Of a stretch of 38,404 nt of DNA, positions 3,768 to 36,986 are shown piece after piece. The notes under the pieces are model-generated. The model made no database searches and was not told the DNA's origin. It saw nothing but the letters and a program-made list of their open reading frames with translations. Made by a program: the position numbers and the translations under genes. The stretch is taken from IMG/VR virus record IMGVR_UViG_2541047879_000002, one strand, 5' to 3'. How positions within the stretch are numbered: the stretch's first letter is position 1; each line of letters begins with the position of its first letter. The DNA is from a virus. Its lineage: Duplodnaviria > Heunggongvirae > Uroviricota > Caudoviricetes.

Positions 3768-4171
3768 TTTCCCGCAGAAACAGGCTCTGCGGGCCCGGCG
3801 TCCTCTGTCTGTTCAGGGGCATTATTCACCACAAACTCATACATACCAGACAGCCGGTACACCACGTTTTCAGCATGAGAAATTGCCTCCGTGGGCCAGG
3901 TGGTAAGCACTTCCTGCTCAATCTGTTTAACGGCTTCGTTCATGGACGGCATCTGCGTCTTCTGCGGATGGTTATGCCACAGGGACATCGCCACCAGAAA
4001 CGCGCCGGTTCTGATGGCGTCTTCCACAGTAAACTTCCGGTTGCTGTCTGACTCCGCCTGTTCTGCCTGCCGTTTCATCAGGGCGAGATGCTCAATGCGC
4101 TGCAGGGCTGACAGTTCAGAAAGCGTGACGGACACACCGTTATGTTCAAATGATTCGGTTTTCAGGAACAC
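3749..4171 (-). CDS. G: Tail assembly chaperone G
   Basis: 140-aa ORF between V and T in lambda order. Confidence 0.85.
   Translation of the reverse strand: MFLKTESFEHNGVSVTLSELSALQRIEHLALMKRQAEQAESDSNRKFTVEDAIRTGAFLVAMSLWHNHPQKTQMPSMNEAVKQIEQEVLTTWPTEAISHAENVVYRLSGMYEFVVNNAPEQTEDAGPAEPVSAGKCSTVS
3767..3773 (-). other. Candidate -1 programmed frameshift slippery heptamer (GGGAAAG on minus strand) at the G/T overlap
   Basis: Plus strand ctttccc at 3767..3773, revcomp GGGAAAG, exactly where the G and T frames overlap. Confidence 0.55.
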
Positions 4172-4186
4172 CTCTGACTCTCCGGA

Positions 4187-4927
4187 TTAACTGGCGGTGA
4201 CGGTAATTTCTGCAACCGCAGCAAACTCACCATTACCGGATACAACCGGAATGTTGACCTTGCCTGCAGCAACGCCGTTCACGGTGATGGTCATACCACT
4301 GACCGACACGGTGGCTTTTGTTTTATCCACAGACACCGCACGAAAGCTCTTGTCGGTTACGCCCTCCGGCTGGAAGGCCACGGTCAGCGTGGTGCTCTGC
4401 CCTTTCACTACGGAAGCACTGGCTGGCGTTACCGTCATGCCGGTGGCCGCTGTTACCGTGCTGCGATCTTCTGCCATCGACGGACGTCCCACATTGGTGA
4501 CTTTCACCGTGCGGGTGATCACTTCCTTCGCCGTCACCGCCTTACCGATACTGCTGACCCAGCCACAGAACACATCGACCGTGCCGTTCGGGAAGCGGAT
4601 TTTATAGACACGGGTATCGCCTTCATTAAACCACGCCAGCAGCGCCTGCTGCCCCTGCTCTCCGGGCATCCACGCCAGCGTGAAGCTGGTATCTCCGGCA
4701 GATTTCTGCCCCTGCCCGGTCGCAGTCCAGTCTGCATCTTCATCATCGAGATAGCTGTCGTCATAGGACTCAGCGGTCAGTTCGCCGGGCGTCAGGTCTT
4801 TAACTTTTGCCAGACGCGACCAGTCAACGTCTGAAAGCGGATTCGCATAAGGGTCACCGCTCCCCTTATAAACCCACAGGGTGGTCCCGGCACCTTTCAC
4901 CGGCATTGTAGGATTTGGTACAGGCAT
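4187..4927 (-). CDS. V: Major tail protein V
   Basis: ORF 4187..4957; likely start at internal [12 protein letters not shown] (246 aa), leaving no overlap with U; Ig-like C-terminal region. Confidence 0.9.
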
Positions 4928-17587: not shown

Positions 17588-18670
17588 ATGAAAAAATTAA
17601 CAGTGGCAATTTCTGCTGTAGCTGCATCAGTACTGATGGCGATGTCTGCTCAGGCAGCTGAAATTTATAATAAAGACAGTAACAAGCTGGATCTGTACGG
17701 GAAAGTTAATGCTAAGCACTACTTCTCCTCTAATGATGCAGATGATGGTGATACTACTTATGCCCGTCTTGGCTTCAAAGGTGAAACCCAAATCAACGAT
17801 CAACTGACTGGTTTCGGTCAGTGGGAATATGAATTCAAAGGCAACCGCGCTGAATCTCAAGGTTCCTCCAAAGATAAAACCCGTCTTGCCTTCGCTGGCC
17901 TGAAATTCGGTGACTACGGCTCCATCGATTATGGCCGTAACTACGGTGTAGCATACGATATTGGTGCATGGACCGACGTTCTGCCAGAATTCGGTGGCGA
18001 TACCTGGACCCAAACAGATGTATTCATGACTGGTCGCACCACAGGTGTTGCAACTTATCGTAACAATGACTTCTTTGGTCTGGTTGATGGTCTGAACTTT
18101 GCTGCTCAGTATCAGGGTAAAAATGACCGCACTGACGTAACTGAAGCTAATGGTGATGGTTTCGGTTTCTCCACTACTTATGAGTATGAAGGATTCGGTG
18201 TAGGTGCAACCTATGCTAAATCTGACCGCACTAATAATCAGGTTATCTACGGTAACAACAGCCTGAATGCATCTGGTCAAAATGCTGAAGTATGGGCAGC
18301 TGGTCTGAAATATGATGCGAACAACATCTATCTGGCTACCACCTATTCTGAAACCCAGAACATGACTGTTTTTGGTAATAACCATATTGCCAACAAAGCA
18401 CAAAACTTCGAAGTAGTTGCACAATATCAGTTCGACTTCGGTCTGCGTCCGTCCGTTGCTTACCTGCAATCTAAAGGAAAAGACTTGGGTGCGTGGGGTG
18501 ATCAGGACCTGGTTGAATATATTGATGTAGGTGCAACCTATTACTTCAACAAAAATATGTCCACTTTTGTTGATTACAAAATCAACCTGATTGATAAGAG
18601 CGATTTCACGAAAGCATCTGGCGTTGCTACCGATGATATCGTTGCTGTAGGTATGGTTTACCAGTTCTAA
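17588..18670 (+). CDS. nmpC: OmpC-family general porin (NmpC/Lc type, prophage-encoded)
   Basis: 360-aa ORF with signal peptide [29 protein letters not shown] and C-terminal aromatic residue (...VYQF); between Q and S on the opposite strand. Confidence 0.9.
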
Positions 18671-22172: not shown

Positions 22173-23699
22173 TCAAAAATAAACCTCACCATCAACCATA
22201 TATTTGAGAGTACTTATCGCCTGCTGGGCGGATATTGTTTTCATTAAAGGATAGTGTTTAAAAACAATGCCATTCATAAAATAGATATCACAGGTTTTAT
22301 TATCTGTATTGATTATGATTTTTTCGAATGTTTTATAGGCAAGTGTACGACATAGCTCTCGCCCATTTTTACTGGTTAAGTCAATAGCATGAAAATCACC
22401 AAGTGAACTCACCGCTTTACTCTTCAAAGTTTTTAATGATACAGAAGCCCTTCGTAATTCCTTATCTAATACTCTGATTTTTTCTGCTATAGCGGTAACT
22501 TCAGGCGCAACAGATAATGCAGCAATTAAATTATTAATTTTCATCTGGAGCTCAATAATTTTCAACTCTAAAGTTTCATTAGCATCTTTCTTGTTTTCAA
22601 CTGGTTGGATTTTACTACAATTAAAAAGCAACTCATTAATGATATTATAATCAACCAAATCTCTCTTTATTGATGGCCTGTCACATCGATGCAGTCTTCT
22701 CATCGGACAAACATAATAGCCATGCAAACTTCCAGATACCGCATGAACAATCATGGTATTACCACAAGCCTCGCACTTCATAACTGTTCGAAGTAGATTT
22801 ATCAACATAGGATTTTTGCTACTATTGCTAATACCAAAAGGTGCCAACCGAATTTCCTGTACAGCGTAAAACAAATCATCTGATATGACTCTGGGATAAT
22901 AGCCAGCGATTTCACTTATTCCTTTACCTCTTGCACGATATGAAGGTACGCATATACCTATCAGAGCTTTATTCGCTAATAATTTTTCAATTACAGAAGG
23001 TCCCCATGCACTTTCTTTTCCTGAGAAATTCTTTACAGCATGATCATTTAAATACTTGGCTATTGCATTCAATGAGCGCCTTTCCATCCTGAGTTTAAAA
23101 ATTAGCTCAATAGTTTTCACCCTGTCGGGGTCTGGAACAAAAGCCGTTCTTTTGTCATCTAAGGAGAGCCATCTCGGACAAGACGCCGTCATAATCGTAC
23201 CTGATTCCAGTGCATCCTGCCGTTTTTTCTTCCATGATAATTTAACCCGACTTGACTTTATCTCGCTTTCTTCATTTGCCCTTTGTGCTATAAGTATGGC
23301 TTTTATTAATGAATATGGCTCATTCAAAGAGTCAATATTATAGACTGTATTGTCGCAAAGAGTTATAACATCAATACCGTGATTCAAAATCAATTTCAGA
23401 CGTTCAATCGCTTCACCGACTTTTTCTCTTGAAAGTCTGTCCAGACTTTCAACTAACAATGTAGTTCCTGGCAATATATAACCATGCTCTATAGCATCTA
23501 AAAATTCCGAAAAAGCTCCTGATTGTGCATGCTTTCCTTTGAATGCACTTAATCCTAAATCTTCATATGTTATGGTATCAAGATAATAATCACTATTTAC
23601 CTTTAACCATTCAGCAATAAGTCTTCTCTGTCGGTTTAATGAGTCGCCAGACATCTGACCTGGTGATGAAAATCGCATATATGCTATGGCTTTTTTCAT
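22173..23699 (-). CDS. ybcK: Large serine recombinase (YbcK-like)
   Basis: 508-aa ORF with resolvase-type N-terminus MKKAIAYMRFSSPGQ (catalytic Ser), recombinase domain and Cys-rich zinc-ribbon-like segment CEACGN...CPMRRLHRC. Confidence 0.85.
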   Translation of the reverse strand: MKKAIAYMRFSSPGQMSGDSLNRQRRLIAEWLKVNSDYYLDTITYEDLGLSAFKGKHAQSGAFSEFLDAIEHGYILPGTTLLVESLDRLSREKVGEAIERLKLILNHGIDVITLCDNTVYNIDSLNEPYSLIKAILIAQRANEESEIKSSRVKLSWKKKRQDALESGTIMTASCPRWLSLDDKRTAFVPDPDRVKTIELIFKLRMERRSLNAIAKYLNDHAVKNFSGKESAWGPSVIEKLLANKALIGICVPSYRARGKGISEIAGYYPRVISDDLFYAVQEIRLAPFGISNSSKNPMLINLLRTVMKCEACGNTMIVHAVSGSLHGYYVCPMRRLHRCDRPSIKRDLVDYNIINELLFNCSKIQPVENKKDANETLELKIIELQMKINNLIAALSVAPEVTAIAEKIRVLDKELRRASVSLKTLKSKAVSSLGDFHAIDLTSKNGRELCRTLAYKTFEKIIINTDNKTCDIYFMNGIVFKHYPLMKTISAQQAISTLKYMVDGEVYF

Positions 23700-34235: not shown

Positions 34236-34457
34236 ATGGCAGACATCATTGATTCGGCATCAGAAATCGAAGAATTACAGCGCAATACAGCAATAAAAAT
34301 GCGTCGTCTGAACTACCAGACTGTATCCGCAACTCATTGTTGTGAGTGTGGCGATCCGATAGATGAACGAAGACGCCTGGTCGTTCAGGGTTGTCGGACT
34401 TGTGCAAGTTGCCAGGAGGATCTGGAGCTTATCAGTAAACAGAGAGGTTCGAAGTGA
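34236..34457 (+). CDS. TraR/DksA-family C4 zinc-finger protein
   Basis: 73-aa ORF with CCECGDPIDERRR...CRTCASC. Confidence 0.7.
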   Translation: MADIIDSASEIEELQRNTAIKMRRLNYQTVSATHCCECGDPIDERRRLVVQGCRTCASCQEDLELISKQRGSK

Positions 34458-34667
34458 GCGAAATTAACTAGAAGCCAAAGATAAAATCATCGCTGAGCAG
34501 GAGAAAATCGCTAACGGAGAAAAGACAGTAAGTCAGTATATGAAAACCGCATGATATCATCAGATAAAAATCGGTCGTAAAGCGAAATATTAATACCAGA
34601 ACAAACGAGTCGAGGTAAATTATATTACCTCGATAAATTAACTAAAACTTGCCCGCTATATACTATA

Positions 34668-35270
34668 TCATTCAGTATCATCACGCGCGGTCTGTGCATA
34701 TGTCACTACCGCACCTAATATATTAATTTTCTTTTCAACATAGATAATATTATCGTACTCATAATTGCCATACGGATAGCAAATGCGAATATTCTCATGT
34801 AGATCGGGGTCATCCACCTCAGCTCCAGAACAACTTTTTGAACTACCGGAAGTATACCGATACGGTGCAACATAAGACGATGTCTCTCCAGGCAAAAAAT
34901 AAGTTAGTGTCGTAAGGGGTATAATCAGAAAAAATCCAGCAAATATGCACATCCCTGCATAAACCTTAAGGTATGCTGACAGACTCTTCCAGCCTCTTTG
35001 TTTTACTATCCCCTTCTTAACCCAAAACAGAGATAACAGAAAAGCTATTCCCATGCTAAACAGAATGTAATAGTGGGATATACTCTGATTAAGAAACGTG
35101 ACCCTGTAGATATCTGCCCGCCACCAGAAGAAAAGGAAAATAAAGATCAGCCCTGAAACTGTCATGCAAATCAAATAAGGATACGAATCTTTTTTCATGT
35201 TTAGCGCCCATAAAATTTTTCCTGACCCGGACAAATTTACCATCCATTTTTTGCGCAGAAAATAGCTCAT
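34668..35270 (-). CDS. Hypothetical integral membrane protein, AT-rich accessory gene on the opposite strand
   Basis: 200-aa ORF (alternative start MKKDSYPY) with about three hydrophobic helices and a C-terminal soluble part. Confidence 0.6.
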   Translation of the reverse strand: MSYFLRKKWMVNLSGSGKILWALNMKKDSYPYLICMTVSGLIFIFLFFWWRADIYRVTFLNQSISHYYILFSMGIAFLLSLFWVKKGIVKQRGWKSLSAYLKVYAGMCIFAGFFLIIPLTTLTYFLPGETSSYVAPYRYTSGSSKSCSGAEVDDPDLHENIRICYPYGNYEYDNIIYVEKKINILGAVVTYAQTARDDTE

Positions 35271-35512
35271 TACTTACTGTACAATAATACACAAAATTGC
35301 GTAAATTTTTTGCATGGATTTTAGCTCTTTCAGCCGACATTTAAGGGGTAAATAGCATTTCCTAAAAGCAACTGCACCAACCCAACAGAATGGGCTACCG
35401 CTTACGTTGAGAGCAAAAAAGTGTATAGCAGCAATGAACAGCATCCTCGCACTGACGAGGATTTCTTTTATCTGAACTCGCTACGGCGGGTTTTGTTTTA
35501 TGGAGATGATAA

Positions 35513-35680
35513 ATGCACTTCCGAGTCACAGGTGAATGGAATGGAGAACCATTCAACAGAGTTATCGAAGCCGAGAACATCAGCGACTGCTATGACCACT
35601 GGATGCTGTGGGCGCAGATAGCACATGCAGACGTAACCAATATTCGAATTGAAGAACTGAAAGAACACCAAGCCGCCTGA
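35513..35680 (+). CDS. Small conserved ORF upstream of xis (lambda orf55-like by position)
   Basis: Own translation MHFRVTGEWNGEPFNRVIEAENISDCYDHWMLWAQIAHADVTNIRIEELKEHQAA; a different frame from ORF-track entry 35421..35621; hairpin gccgcc/ggcggc plus T-run follows. Confidence 0.55.
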   Translation: MHFRVTGEWNGEPFNRVIEAENISDCYDHWMLWAQIAHADVTNIRIEELKEHQAA

Positions 35681-35719
35681 TGGCGGTTTTTTCTTGCGTG
35701 TAATTGCGGAGACTTTGCG

Positions 35720-35938
35720 ATGTACTTGACACTTCAGGAGTGGAACGCACGCCAGCGACGCCCAAGAAGCCTTGAAACAGTTCGTCGATGGGTACGCGAG
35801 TGCAGGATATTCCCTCCTCCGGTTAAGGATGGAAGAGAGTATCTGTTCCACGAATCAGCGGTAAAGGTTGACTTAAATCGACCAGTAACAGGTAGCCTTT
35901 TGAAGAGGATCAGAAATGGGAAGAAGGCGAAGTCATGA
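35720..35938 (+). CDS. xis: Excisionase Xis
   Basis: 72-aa ORF MYLTLQEWNARQRRPRSLETVRRWVRECRIFPPPVKDGREYLF... Confidence 0.95.
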   Translation: MYLTLQEWNARQRRPRSLETVRRWVRECRIFPPPVKDGREYLFHESAVKVDLNRPVTGSLLKRIRNGKKAKS

Positions 35939-36986
35939 GCGCCGGGATTTACCCCCTAACCTTTATATAAGAAACAATGGATATTACTGCTACAGGGACC
36001 CAAGGACGGGTAAAGAGTTTGGATTAGGCAGAGACAGGCGAATCGCAATCACTGAAGCCATACAGGCCAACATTGAGTTATTTTCAGGACACAAACACAA
36101 GCCTCTGACAGCGAGAATCAACAGTGATAATTCCGTTACGTTACATTCATGGCTTGATCGCTACGAAAAAATCCTGGCCAGCAGAGGAATCAAGCAGAAG
36201 ACACTCATAAATTACATGAGCAAAATTAAAGCAATAAGGAGGGGTCTGCCTGATGCTCCACTTGAAGACATCACCACAAAAGAAATTGCGGCAATGCTCA
36301 ATGGATACATAGACGAGGGCAAGGCGGCGTCAGCCAAGTTAATCAGATCAACACTGAGCGATGCATTCCGAGAGGCAATAGCTGAAGGCCATATAACAAC
36401 AAACCCTGTCGCTGCCACTCGCGCAGCAAAATCAGAGGTAAGGAGATCAAGACTTACGGCTGACGAATACCTGAAAATTTATCAAGCAGCAGAATCATCA
36501 CCATGTTGGCTCAGACTTGCAATGGAACTGGCTGTTGTTACCGGGCAACGAGTTGGTGATTTATGCGAAATGAAGTGGTCTGATATCGTAGATGGATATC
36601 TTTATGTCGAGCAAAGCAAAACAGGCGTAAAAATTGCCATCCCAACAACATTGCATGTTGATGCTCTCGGGATATCAATGAAGGAAACACTTGATAAATG
36701 CAAAGAGATTCTTGGCGGAGAAACCATAATTGCATCTACTCGTCGTGAACCGCTTTCATCCGGCACAGTATCAAGGTATTTTATGCGCGCACGAAAAGCA
36801 TCAGGTCTTTCCTTCGAAGGGGATCCGCCTACCTTTCACGAGTTGCGCAGTTTGTCTGCAAGACTCTATGAGAAGCAGATAAGCGATAAGTTTGCTCAAC
36901 ATCTTCTCGGGCATAAGTCGGACACCATGGCATCACAGTATCGTGATGACAGAGGCAGGGAGTGGGACAAAATTGAAATCAAATAA
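35916..36986 (+). CDS. int: Integrase Int (tyrosine recombinase)
   Basis: 356-aa ORF overlapping xis 3' end; C-terminal catalytic region ...HELRSLSARLY...LLGHKSDTMASQYRDD. Confidence 0.95.
   Translation: MGRRRSHERRDLPPNLYIRNNGYYCYRDPRTGKEFGLGRDRRIAITEAIQANIELFSGHKHKPLTARINSDNSVTLHSWLDRYEKILASRGIKQKTLINYMSKIKAIRRGLPDAPLEDITTKEIAAMLNGYIDEGKAASAKLIRSTLSDAFREAIAEGHITTNPVAATRAAKSEVRRSRLTADEYLKIYQAAESSPCWLRLAMELAVVTGQRVGDLCEMKWSDIVDGYLYVEQSKTGVKIAIPTTLHVDALGISMKETLDKCKEILGGETIIASTRREPLSSGTVSRYFMRARKASGLSFEGDPPTFHELRSLSARLYEKQISDKFAQHLLGHKSDTMASQYRDDRGREWDKIEIK

Follow-up and report, generated by a model that had tools for sequence, protein, structure and literature searches.

The phage-borne morons of HK97 gp15 and T4 Imm encode small inner-membrane proteins that act at genome entry. 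In P22, the prophage-encoded SieA is an independently transcribed protein of ~160 aa, which is predicted to lie in the inner membrane with three transmembrane (TM) helices (PMC10883804). The gpA-gpQ locus of P2 was described as a defence hotspot (Rousset et al. 2022, PMC9122126), although the cargo of P2 hotspots is not all defensive and includes partition systems and toxins (PMC9122126). Ranked fourth by frequency in this 2022 catalogue is System #4, a single protein characterized as '3 TM' with no Pfam and 470 occurrences (Rousset et al. 2022 Table S5B, PMC9122126). It carries no name and no assigned function in the catalogue, and is missing from the tables of validated and additionally tested systems (PMC9122126). 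In P2 itself, the gpA-gpQ locus is occupied by old and tin.

We analyzed a minus-strand gene in a Caudoviricetes virus record (IMG/VR IMGVR_UViG_2541047879_000002). The whole stretch of 38,404 nucleotides is hereafter called the window. When the window protein was compared with the System #4 protein P0169 by BLASTP, 51% identity was observed over 168 residues (E 2e-56). Like the window protein, System #4 possesses three TM helices and a beta-domain with the CSGA...ICYP motifs. In the PHROG scan, no family annotated as exclusion was detected and the sole match was phrog_1416 (E 7e-51), whose function is unannotated. This match was limited to residues 113-200, since the 112-aa calls behind the profile have wrong starts. 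Judged by these similarities, the window protein is a member of the 3-TM hotspot family (Rousset 2022 System #4; PHROG 1416). The positions of the genes differ: System #4 lies between gpA and gpQ, whereas the window copy is not in gpA-gpQ and lies in the lambdoid exo-xis region, between the TraR-like gene and tL4/ORF55/xis.

A homology search had been proposed together with the original prediction. It yielded this one uncharacterized hotspot family and no characterized homologue, housekeeping or otherwise. No match for the membrane protein was found among the Pfam, NCBIfam, PDB and viral-structure entries, and no defence model of PADLOC-DB v2 matched at E <= 1. Homology was negative for all three proteins compared by hhalign, namely SieA (probability 0.1%), the short NfeD protein YbbJ of E. 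coli (0.15%) and the 3-TM protein of the validated 'Hydrolase + 3TM' P4 system (0.2%).

Like the window protein, SieA is prophage-encoded, in the size class of about 160-176 aa, and predicted to have three TM helices, and it is the best functional analogy for how the window protein might work. However, the FxRYPxEAxxFNK motif of SieA is absent from the window protein. The conserved C-terminal motif of SieA is predicted to be cytoplasmic, whereas the C-terminal domain of the window protein is a predicted periplasmic beta-barrel. In addition, SieA is restricted to the interval between gene 16 and gene 9 in P22-like phages, unlike the window family. The proteins gp15 and Imm are likewise small phage-borne inner-membrane proteins, but they are smaller than the window protein and have no folded periplasmic domain. 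The short NfeD proteins and the DUF1093/YxeA-type proteins were also among the closest systems considered. For NfeD (PF01957), there was no Pfam match, and no SPFH/stomatin gene was found near the window gene. Old (an ATPase-nuclease) and Tin (a soluble protein) share the genomic niche of the P2-borne copies and are both unrelated to the window protein.

Layout and distribution of the cassette

The features of the locus are as follows.

34236..34457, plus strand: TraR/DksA-type zinc-finger gene, the equivalent of lambda orf73 (PF01258, E 4e-9; phrog_54)
34454..34471, plus strand: ea22 remnant, GTG AGC GAA ATT AAC TAG (MSEIN-stop), from the lambda alignment and frame translation
34470..35436, no strand: 434-type substitution, from alignments to lambda
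34578..35335, minus strand: mobile cassette (upstream region, gene and hairpin), from blastn against the P2-like locus L014
34610..34633, minus strand: palindromic hairpin with a 9-bp stem and a 6-nt loop, from the terminator scan and folding energy
34668..35198, minus strand: gene proper for a predicted 176-aa inner-membrane protein (conserved MKK start, dN/dS, AlphaFold2 and charge distribution)
35199..35270, minus strand: 24-codon in-frame extension that gives the 200-aa ORF; the frame is closed upstream in non-434 homologues
35274..35444, minus strand: 56-aa ORF of the phage 434 and mEp332 annotations ('ORF-22+' in M60848)
35443..35469, plus strand: tL4-type pL-operon terminator with a hairpin and a downstream T-run (t-L4 annotated in M60848; terminator-like site in the scan; lambda alignment)
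35513..35680, plus strand: ORF55, a conserved lambdoid gene upstream of xis and equivalent to lambdap35 (phrog_676, E 5e-40; ORF55 in M60848)

As originally predicted, an opposite-strand gene (34668..35270, minus) lies between the TraR-like gene and xis. Its neighbors bet, exo, the orf60a/63/61-like genes, the TraR/DksA gene, ORF55, xis and int are all on the plus strand. The AT-richness was also borne out, since the GC content is 0.35-0.40 across 34500-35400 and 0.44-0.54 in the flanks. The 434-type substitution (~967 bp) replaces ea22 and ea8.5 of lambda. Homology to lambda stops at 34469 on the left and is back from about 35443 on the right, where the tL4-type terminator sits at the junction. 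The TraR/DksA-type gene, the aligned 3' part of which is near-identical to lambda DNA, is the final intact gene of the pL operon ahead of the cassette, and the first 31 nt of the query match Ea22-annotated sequence in other phages. The 434-type segment is 98.7-99.7% identical in DNA to phages 434, mEp332 and 2B8, and the RefSeq annotation beneath its match consists of one hypothetical protein only. In its layout, the locus is a 'moron' cassette that stands by itself: about 0.76-0.97 kb hold an upstream control region, a single gene and a hairpin, and the unit runs antisense to the pL operon.

The cassette is common. In addition to the model phage 434, 905 of the 5426 complete E. coli genomes (~17%) carry the segment in its lambdoid form, when carriage is defined as at least 80% of the 1055-bp segment. 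By blastn, the P2-like locus L014 of E. coli matched over 761 nt with 76% identity, and this match included 137 nt upstream of the gene and the hairpin. About 760 bp are thus common to the window and the P2-like prophage copies. Two further loci (L005 and L004) matched the window cassette over shorter spans. P2-borne copies closer than the System #4 protein reached 78% identity and shared the flanking DNA. In the P2-like prophages of E. coli and Salmonella, the gene is placed between the portal gene Q and the replication gene A, often as the sole cargo. These comparisons strongly support the view that the same cassette occurs in lambdoid prophages and in the gpA-gpQ cargo hotspot of P2-like prophages.

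A one-genome-per-species scan detected the family in Enterobacteriaceae only, together with one contaminated MAG contig. The E. coli and Salmonella copies are overwhelmingly prophage-borne. In five species of Enterobacter, a syntenic chromosomal orthologue was found beside GGDEF and AI-2E-transporter genes, and the chromosomal Klebsiella orthologue is flanked by a bgl-type PTS operon and a LysR gene. There are no phage genes near either, and these chromosomal orthologues show ~42-45% identity. Divergent representatives were on short contigs, in which the context is uninformative.

Some Salmonella P2-like loci possess an 81-aa gene and a 119-aa gene (the latter with HAD-like matches) upstream. 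A three-gene system with these two is unsupported, because both are absent in L005, L014 and L022-L025.

Coding sequence and predicted architecture

The gene had been predicted to encode a 200-aa membrane protein. The ORF is real and constrained; however, the product is most likely 176 aa in length with its ATG at 35198, because all non-434 homologues start there. In ten of ten homologous loci outside the 434 lineage, the frame is closed 1-14 codons upstream of the conserved MKK start, and no alternative start is present. Furthermore, both candidate -10 elements fall within the 24-codon extension. On these grounds the 200-aa product was rejected, and the first 24 codons probably serve as an untranslated leader or as promoter DNA. 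The amino-acid differences among the 434-type variants cluster in the extension (2-3 of 24 codons, versus about 4-5 of 176 in the alignment). A weak Shine-Dalgarno sequence precedes the conserved start.

Many database entries for the family are only 112 aa long. These forms were not accepted as truncated pseudogenes, since they are mis-called starts on an intact 176-aa ORF. Homologues as distant as 42% identity retain the length and architecture of the membrane protein, and 57 representatives at the 50%-identity level have the same architecture. The dN/dS of the gene was 0.10-0.17 (pN/pS, seven comparisons), which strongly supports purifying selection.

The 56-aa ORF has no family match, and no homologue of it was found upstream of the gene in the P2-like, Cedecea, Klebsiella and Enterobacter loci. 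It also crosses the cassette boundary at 35335. It is probably not a gene, and an operon of the 56-aa ORF and the membrane-protein gene was rejected because the former is unconserved and straddles the boundary.

The following parts, all on the minus strand, were assigned in the protein.

35118-35180, 35019-35072 and 34896-34964, minus strand: TM1, TM2 and TM3 (hydropathy, AlphaFold2)
34671-34895, minus strand: C-terminal beta-barrel domain (AlphaFold2 model)
34830-34832 and 34779-34781, minus strand: invariant Cys codons (homologue alignments)

About three hydrophobic helices had been anticipated, and both hydropathy and the AlphaFold2 model of the full protein (pLDDT 86) confirmed this number. 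The model comprises three long helices, five strands and a short strand in loop 1. The C-terminal domain of ~75 residues is predicted to be a five-stranded, OB-like beta-barrel, and gave a pLDDT of 89.5 when modelled alone. An architecture of three TM helices followed by an OB-like beta-barrel is therefore strongly supported at the level of prediction. Family alignments revealed invariant C-S-G-A and I-C-Y-P motifs in this domain, which contains the only two conserved cysteines of the protein. These may be disulfide-bonded to each other at the base of the beta2-beta3 hairpin.

The soluble C-terminal part of the original prediction was recovered as a non-membrane domain by hydropathy and AlphaFold2, and from the charge distribution it is predicted to be in the periplasm rather than the cytoplasm. 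Lys and Arg account for 2 of 6 residues at the N-terminus, 5-6 of 18 in loop 2 and 1-2 of 15 in loop 1. This pattern points to a topology with the N-terminus in and the C-terminus out, in which the beta-barrel and the conserved first loop would be periplasmic. The predicted periplasmic domain is the best-conserved part of the protein, and pN was lower in the C-terminus in most comparisons.

Possible exclusion, envelope and abortive-infection functions

From its sequence and context, the cassette is a plausible phage-exclusion or envelope factor. A lysogenic-conversion or exclusion role had been proposed at the outset. The anatomy of the locus fits this role, as an AT-rich antisense cassette with a conserved upstream region and a hairpin, but no known exclusion or defence family was matched. 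The defence-type context (hotspot cargo, often the sole gene) supports the same role. Papers on the 434 genome and mEp332, on exclusion by 434 lysogens, and on P2 hotspots or the exo-xis region yielded no functional data for the gene.

The reading that we tentatively prefer, at somewhat less than an even chance, is that of a prophage-expressed envelope protection factor that causes superinfection exclusion at genome entry. In the repressed prophage, the gene would have a promoter of its own, and active pL would bring convergent transcription against it. The periplasmic domain would bind a conserved component of the host or of the incoming phage at the inner membrane, and this binding would block one step in phage genome entry. 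Exclusion would then proceed in the manner of P22 SieA or HK97 gp15, by an unrelated protein family. If this is the case, the few inner-membrane blocks to genome entry would be joined by another protein family with a novel periplasmic mode of action, and the lambdoid exo-xis region and the P2 hotspot would be shown to exchange cargo directly.

Against exclusion, the family rides in both siphovirus-type (lambdoid) and myovirus-type (P2-like) prophages, and so is not confined to a single injection machinery as SieA and gp15 are. A more specific proposal, which we consider possible but doubtful, would make the protein the founding member of a new single-protein inner-membrane exclusion family, in which a disulfide-stapled periplasmic OB-like domain binds a conserved host component that several unrelated phages need for entry. 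Such a family would explain the exchange of the cassette between lambdoid and P2-like prophages as well as its chromosomal fixation in Enterobacter. Phage 434 would then have carried an unrecognized heterotypic exclusion gene since the 1950s.

Phages also carry morons for host fitness, such as bor and lom. The window protein could likewise be an envelope or physiology factor with no anti-phage action, an alternative that we take seriously although its probability is well short of even. It might, for example, confer stress tolerance, interact with a conserved host complex in the periplasm or inner membrane, or provide immunity against a colicin, CDI or T6SS toxin that targets the membrane. The Klebsiella orthologue and the syntenic orthologue of the five Enterobacter species, which lie away from phage genes, suggest a cell-autonomous envelope role. 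The strong conservation of the periplasmic domain suggests a conserved host partner, and not an arms race with variable phage proteins. The lack of a defence-model match and the non-defence cargo of the P2 hotspots agree with this alternative. However, the E. coli and Salmonella copies are found overwhelmingly in prophages, at loci enriched for anti-phage cargo, and the 'chromosomal' copy of Cedecea adjoins an integrase fragment. Moreover, the searches revealed no resemblance to known immunity or stress proteins. If the cell-envelope function hinted at by the Enterobacter orthologues is correct, a host gene has been repeatedly captured by temperate phages.

An abortive-infection effector, silent until infection and then depolarizing or permeabilizing the inner membrane so that the cell dies before phage release, is unlikely. 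TM proteins in defence loci are commonly read as suicide effectors (PMC9122126), and a single small membrane protein at a defence hotspot would suit this explanation. However, the protein has no recognizable sensor domain or partner gene and is the sole gene in many P2-like loci, and the 81-aa and 119-aa genes upstream in some Salmonella loci are missing from others. Stable chromosomal orthologues in Enterobacter are hard to square with a latent toxin that lacks an antitoxin, and the protein is unrelated to the validated 'Hydrolase + 3TM' effector.

Upstream control region and hairpin

The gene had been predicted to be bracketed by its own upstream region and a palindromic hairpin. The 137 nt upstream of the ATG accompany the gene in P2-like prophages, in line with this prediction. 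However, a consensus scan detected no canonical sigma-70 promoter upstream of the gene. This result and the weak T-tract of the putative terminator (see below) count against exclusion. The following elements were recognized upstream.

35234..35242, minus strand: candidate extended -10, TGgTAAATT, found by eye in the aligned upstream regions and missed by the consensus scan
35267..35305, minus strand: three degenerate repeats with 10 bp spacing, then TAATGA (upstream alignments)
35305-35298, 35295-35288 and 35285-35278, minus strand: the repeats TTTACGCA, TTTGTGTA and ATTGTACA, respectively
35272-35267, minus strand: TAATGA

The extended -10 candidate is positionally conserved, as TGaTAAATT, TGaTAATTT or TGgTAAGTT, in the P2-borne and Cedecea copies. 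Transcription would begin around 35227 from this candidate, or around 35260 from the repeats with TAATGA. Three TGTGCA repeats are present upstream in the P2-borne copies, and they are better conserved than those of the window. The region upstream of P2 old has a similar layout, with three short repeats (ATGCA) spaced by ~10 bp and then a -10-like hexamer.

The repeat span covers a 'cII site' annotated in phage 434 (35281-35294; OL657226), where TTGT-N6-TTGT is on the strand of the gene. Together with the antisense orientation of the unit to the pL transcript, this site raises the alternative that the cassette is chiefly regulatory in lysis-lysogeny. A cII-activated, paQ-like antisense promoter would fire as lysogeny is established, and would serve to express the gene or to hinder pL transcription toward xis/int. 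We regard this as very improbable. A cII-dependent promoter of the pRE/pI/paQ type possesses TTGC-N6-TTGC astride the -35 region and, 12-13 nt further downstream, a -10 element. Here the closest -10-like hexamer follows after 8 nt, versus 13 nt for the pI promoter of the window itself (35694-35707). With 9 occurrences of TTGYN6TTGY in the window and 9.3 expected by chance, the site annotated in the 434 record is of a kind found at chance-level frequency. The motif belongs to the 10-bp repeat, which is kept and better conserved in P2-like prophages; P2 itself is not known to encode a lambda-type cII. Furthermore, purifying selection on the protein is strong; therefore the product, and not transcription alone, matters.

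That the ORF arose by chance or is decaying in AT-rich filler, and is no functional gene, might be argued from the missing family annotation, the weak Shine-Dalgarno sequence, the lack of a canonical promoter and the many 112-aa entries. The conservation data, with the dN/dS in all seven comparisons and the 57 representatives of one architecture, already refute this explanation. The confident structure prediction and the wrong starts of the short entries on an intact ORF also speak against it.

The palindromic hairpin begins 34 nt past the stop codon. It is real, with an RNA dG of -12.9 kcal/mol (z = -3.3 against shuffles) and 4 GC in the stem, although it lies 2 nt to the left of the position first estimated. 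The tail CTCGTTTGTT barely satisfies the T criterion of the scan. The hairpin is a candidate for a weak intrinsic terminator of the minus-strand gene. An equivalent hairpin was predicted in L014, in which one stem pair is changed from A-T to G-C on both sides, with one mismatch.

Setting of the gene and its boundaries with lambda

The window holds a lambda-like prophage inserted at lambda's attachment site. The original prediction of a 200-aa ORF in AT-rich DNA, on the strand opposite to the surrounding genes, was confirmed: the ORF lies at 34668..35270 (minus strand) between the zinc-finger gene and ORF55. It is called the 3-TM gene here, for its three predicted transmembrane helices. The GC content is 0.35-0.40 over 34500-35400, whereas it is 0.44-0.54 in both flanks. 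The neighboring features are as follows; int is followed by an ORF that continues past the end of the window.

32040-32825, plus strand: bet
32822-33502, plus strand: exo
Between exo and the zinc-finger gene, plus strand: small orf60a/63/61-like genes
34236-34457, plus strand: TraR/DksA zinc-finger gene
35274-35444, minus strand: 56-aa ORF, annotated as "putative membrane protein" in phages 434 and mEp332, and in part as "ORF-22+" in M60848
35513-35680, plus strand: ORF55
35720-35938, plus strand: xis
35916-36986, plus strand: int

The zinc-finger gene and the first five ea22 codons (GTG 34454 to 34469) are nearly identical to lambda, and the sequences diverge thereafter. Identity returns at ~35443, at the hairpin named t-L4 in M60848, and extends across ORF55 as far as pI and xis. 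Since lambda identity breaks and returns at these points, the segment 34470-~35436 stands in place of lambda's ea22 and ea8.5. In the window, ea22 is a pseudogene (34454-34553, plus strand) with five codons (MSEIN) and a stop at 34469-34471. The out-of-frame stretch after this stop (…EAKDKIIAEQEKIANGEKTVSQYMKTA*) matches DNA adjoining the 3-TM gene in P2-like prophages that have an Ea22-like gene starting with MSEIN. At 35681-35719, ORF55 leads directly to pI/xis, as in lambda and mEp332, whereas phage 434 possesses ORF114 between ORF55 and xis.

Phages 434 (both isolates), mEp332 and 2B8 share a 1055-bp segment at 98.7-99.7% identity, and among 50,697 phage records only theirs encode the protein (tblastn). 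At least 80% of this segment is carried by 905 of 5426 complete E. coli genomes. The only remark in the 434 genome announcement is that the morons of 434 and 21 are unlike lambda's (PMC9119081). A 176-aa protein with 100% identity was also found, with a lambda-type exo and a TraR-like gene, on a 3.5-kb Saccharibacteria-assigned contig of a 'Candidatus Nanosynbacter' MAG (JARKOR010000073.1); this contig almost certainly entered the MAG bin as a contaminant from an E. coli prophage.

Reading frame, hairpin and candidate promoters

A search of 5.8 billion proteins gave 74 relatives, the most distant at 42% identity and every one of them enterobacterial. A profile search run exhaustively over 1.84 billion representatives gave only 57 clusters (50%-identity level), whose full-length members (~165-200 aa) share the same layout. 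Against seven homologues, pN was 0.12-0.39 and pS 0.56-0.85 (Nei-Gojobori); dN/dS was 0.10-0.17 in the comparisons where dS was unsaturated. From these comparisons, the ORF is a real gene. It had been annotated and catalogued before, as an unknown, and hence its existence is not newly discovered.

The length called for the product is 200 aa in RefSeq, 188 aa in the 434 record and 112 aa in many records. Every homologue outside the 434 lineage begins with a conserved M-K-(K/N)-x-S-Y, and in all ten non-434 loci checked the frame is closed 1-14 codons upstream of this start, without an alternative start. Amino-acid differences between near-identical 434-type variants fall disproportionately in the extra 24 codons of the window, which also contain both candidate -10 elements. 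Because of this closed upstream frame and the variable extension, the product is most likely 176 aa, translated from ATG 35198, and the predicted length of 200 aa was rejected. The 112-aa calls, from an internal GTG, account for thousands of family entries and are mis-started annotations; for example, the full 176-aa ORF is intact behind entry P0141 (L038, a P2-like prophage locus, 3809-4339). PHROG 1416 appears to have been built from such shortened calls, and therefore this 90-position profile matches only residues 113-200. The 56-aa ORF is probably spurious: it has no family match, is absent upstream of the 3-TM gene in every other context examined, and straddles the boundary of the DNA shared with P2-like prophages.

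A palindrome had also been predicted downstream. It is real, although its span was placed 2 nt too far right: the hairpin (stem 9 bp, loop 6 nt) occupies 34610-34633 and begins 34 nt past the stop codon. Its RNA has a dG of -12.9 kcal/mol and folds better than every one of 200 shuffles (z -3.3). The tail on the gene's strand, CTCGTTTGTT, barely qualifies under the T criterion for a terminator-like element, and the plus strand of the hairpin has no T-run. The closest P2-borne copy (L014/L038) also has a hairpin in this position, with both bases of one stem pair replaced (A-T to G-C) and one mismatch. The 10-mer TCGATAAATT (34630-34639, plus strand) overlaps the 3' arm and occurs once in the window against 0.08 expected. 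We take it to be the high-affinity nucleation motif published for H-NS; silencing of the AT-rich cassette by H-NS would be in keeping with this.

A consensus scan of 35199-35445 on the gene's strand detected no sigma-70 promoter. Comparison of upstream regions gave two candidates. The first, TGgTAAATT (35242-35234), is of the extended -10 type, and its position is conserved in the P2-borne and Cedecea copies. The second consists of three repeats with 10-bp spacing (35305-35278) followed by TAATGA (35272-35267); the P2-borne copies have a clean TGTGCA three times and then TAATGT. From either candidate, transcription would begin downstream of ATG 35270. The P2 old promoter, with mapped start sites, resembles the second candidate in having three ATGCA repeats followed by TATAAA. 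The mapped old-tin promoter region of P2 (L026, 4440-4490, minus strand) shares its layout with the upstream regions of P2-borne 3-TM copies (L005, L014 and L022): three 5-6-bp repeats (ATGCA or TGTGCA), ~10 bp apart, directly before a -10-like hexamer. This layout may be a common feature of cos-proximal hotspot promoters.

Copies in P2-like prophages and in chromosomes

In Salmonella and E. coli, homologues with 59-78% identity are carried by P2-like prophages, where they lie in the interval from the portal gene (Q) to the replication gene (A), sometimes as the sole gene. This interval is the old and tin locus in P2, and it has been described as a hotspot of anti-phage systems (Rousset et al. 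2022, PMC9122126). Table S5B of that report lists System #4 as '3 TM', with 470 occurrences and no Pfam; its protein is 51% identical to that of the window (E 2e-56). The System #4 sequence motifs appear in none of the tables of validated or additionally tested systems of that report, and no later functional work on the family was found in the literature searched.

By blastn, 35335..34578 of the window aligned with the closest P2-borne copy over 761 nt at 76% identity, covering the gene, the 137 nt that precede its ATG, and 90 nt on its downstream side, where the hairpin lies. An extra 44 nt (34511-34468) also aligned. The same P2-like loci hold the MSEIN-starting Ea22-like gene convergent with the 3-TM gene, an arrangement like that of the ea22 remnant in the window. 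[quoted passage not shown] An 81-aa ORF and a 119-aa ORF with weak HAD or phosphatase-like PHROG matches precede the 3-TM gene, on its strand, in several Salmonella P2-like prophages (L004/L007/L008, 5284-5888). Both are missing in other loci.

In five Enterobacter species (L031-L034, L017), an orthologue (~42-45% identity) occupies a shared, syntenic position in the chromosome, with GGDEF and AI-2E-transporter genes downstream of it; in some of these species it directly follows a LysR gene, and in others only fragments of LysR are left. A Klebsiella orthologue lies at a different locus. No phage genes were found near the Enterobacter or Klebsiella loci. The Cedecea copy adjoins an integrase fragment.

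Predicted architecture and function

The AlphaFold2 model (24-sequence alignment, pLDDT 86) bears out the predicted membrane protein, with three long helices, a short strand in loop 1 and a C-terminal beta domain of five strands; a separate model of the last 78 residues had pLDDT 89.5. Since K+R are enriched in the N-terminus (2/6) and loop 2 (5-6/18) relative to loop 1 (1-2/15), the counts support an N-in, C-out topology, which would put both loop 1 and the beta domain on the periplasmic side. Two cysteines are invariant in full-length members, C123 (C-S-G-A) and C140 (I-C-Y-P). They flank the beta2-beta3 hairpin of the model and can reasonably be expected to form a periplasmic C123-C140 disulfide. 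Conservation is highest in the C-terminal domain, with a mean column identity of 69% versus 51% for the whole protein. The anatomy is secure: a mobile single-gene cassette whose product is an inner-membrane protein with three TM helices and a conserved OB-like domain that is probably periplasmic.

Pfam, NCBIfam, PADLOC and a PDB profile search gave no match to the protein, and Foldseek against predicted viral structures gave nothing below E 0.01. Homology to P22 SieA (hhalign 0.1%), E. coli NfeD YbbJ (0.15%) and the 3-TM protein of the validated 'Hydrolase + 3TM' system (0.2%) was rejected; the likeness to SieA is architectural, without a sequence relation detected by hhalign. The protein is outside all characterised families, very common, and directly testable in phage 434.

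Since the gene is antisense to pL, expression in the lysogen is expected. The original prediction suggested superinfection exclusion or lysogenic conversion, and this was partly supported. The moron layout, the defence-rich cargo loci in two unrelated temperate phage families and the SieA-like architecture point tentatively to envelope-level exclusion of superinfecting phages, a reading that we hold somewhat short of probable. The main evidence against a purely anti-phage role is the chromosomal Enterobacter and Klebsiella copies. These stable orthologues and the conserved periplasmic domain would also suit a non-defence envelope function, which is possible but rather doubtful. An abortive-infection effector seems unlikely, and a cII-linked regulatory role is very improbable, since the cII site that the 434 record annotates consists of two of the 10-bp-spaced repeats, and TTGYN6TTGY, with 9 occurrences in the window, is no more frequent than expected (9.3).

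The prophage carries other cargo. A eukaryotic-type Ser/Thr protein kinase gene (28505-29401, plus strand; Pkinase, E 7e-47), whose product presumably resembles the Stk exclusion kinase of phage 933W, is directly followed by an IS-type transposase gene (rve; 29398-30264, minus strand). A general porin gene (17588-18670, plus strand; Porin_1, E 3e-153; annotated as OmpD-like in related phages) and a large serine recombinase gene (22173-23699, minus strand) are added cargo that could change the cell surface or rearrange the genome.
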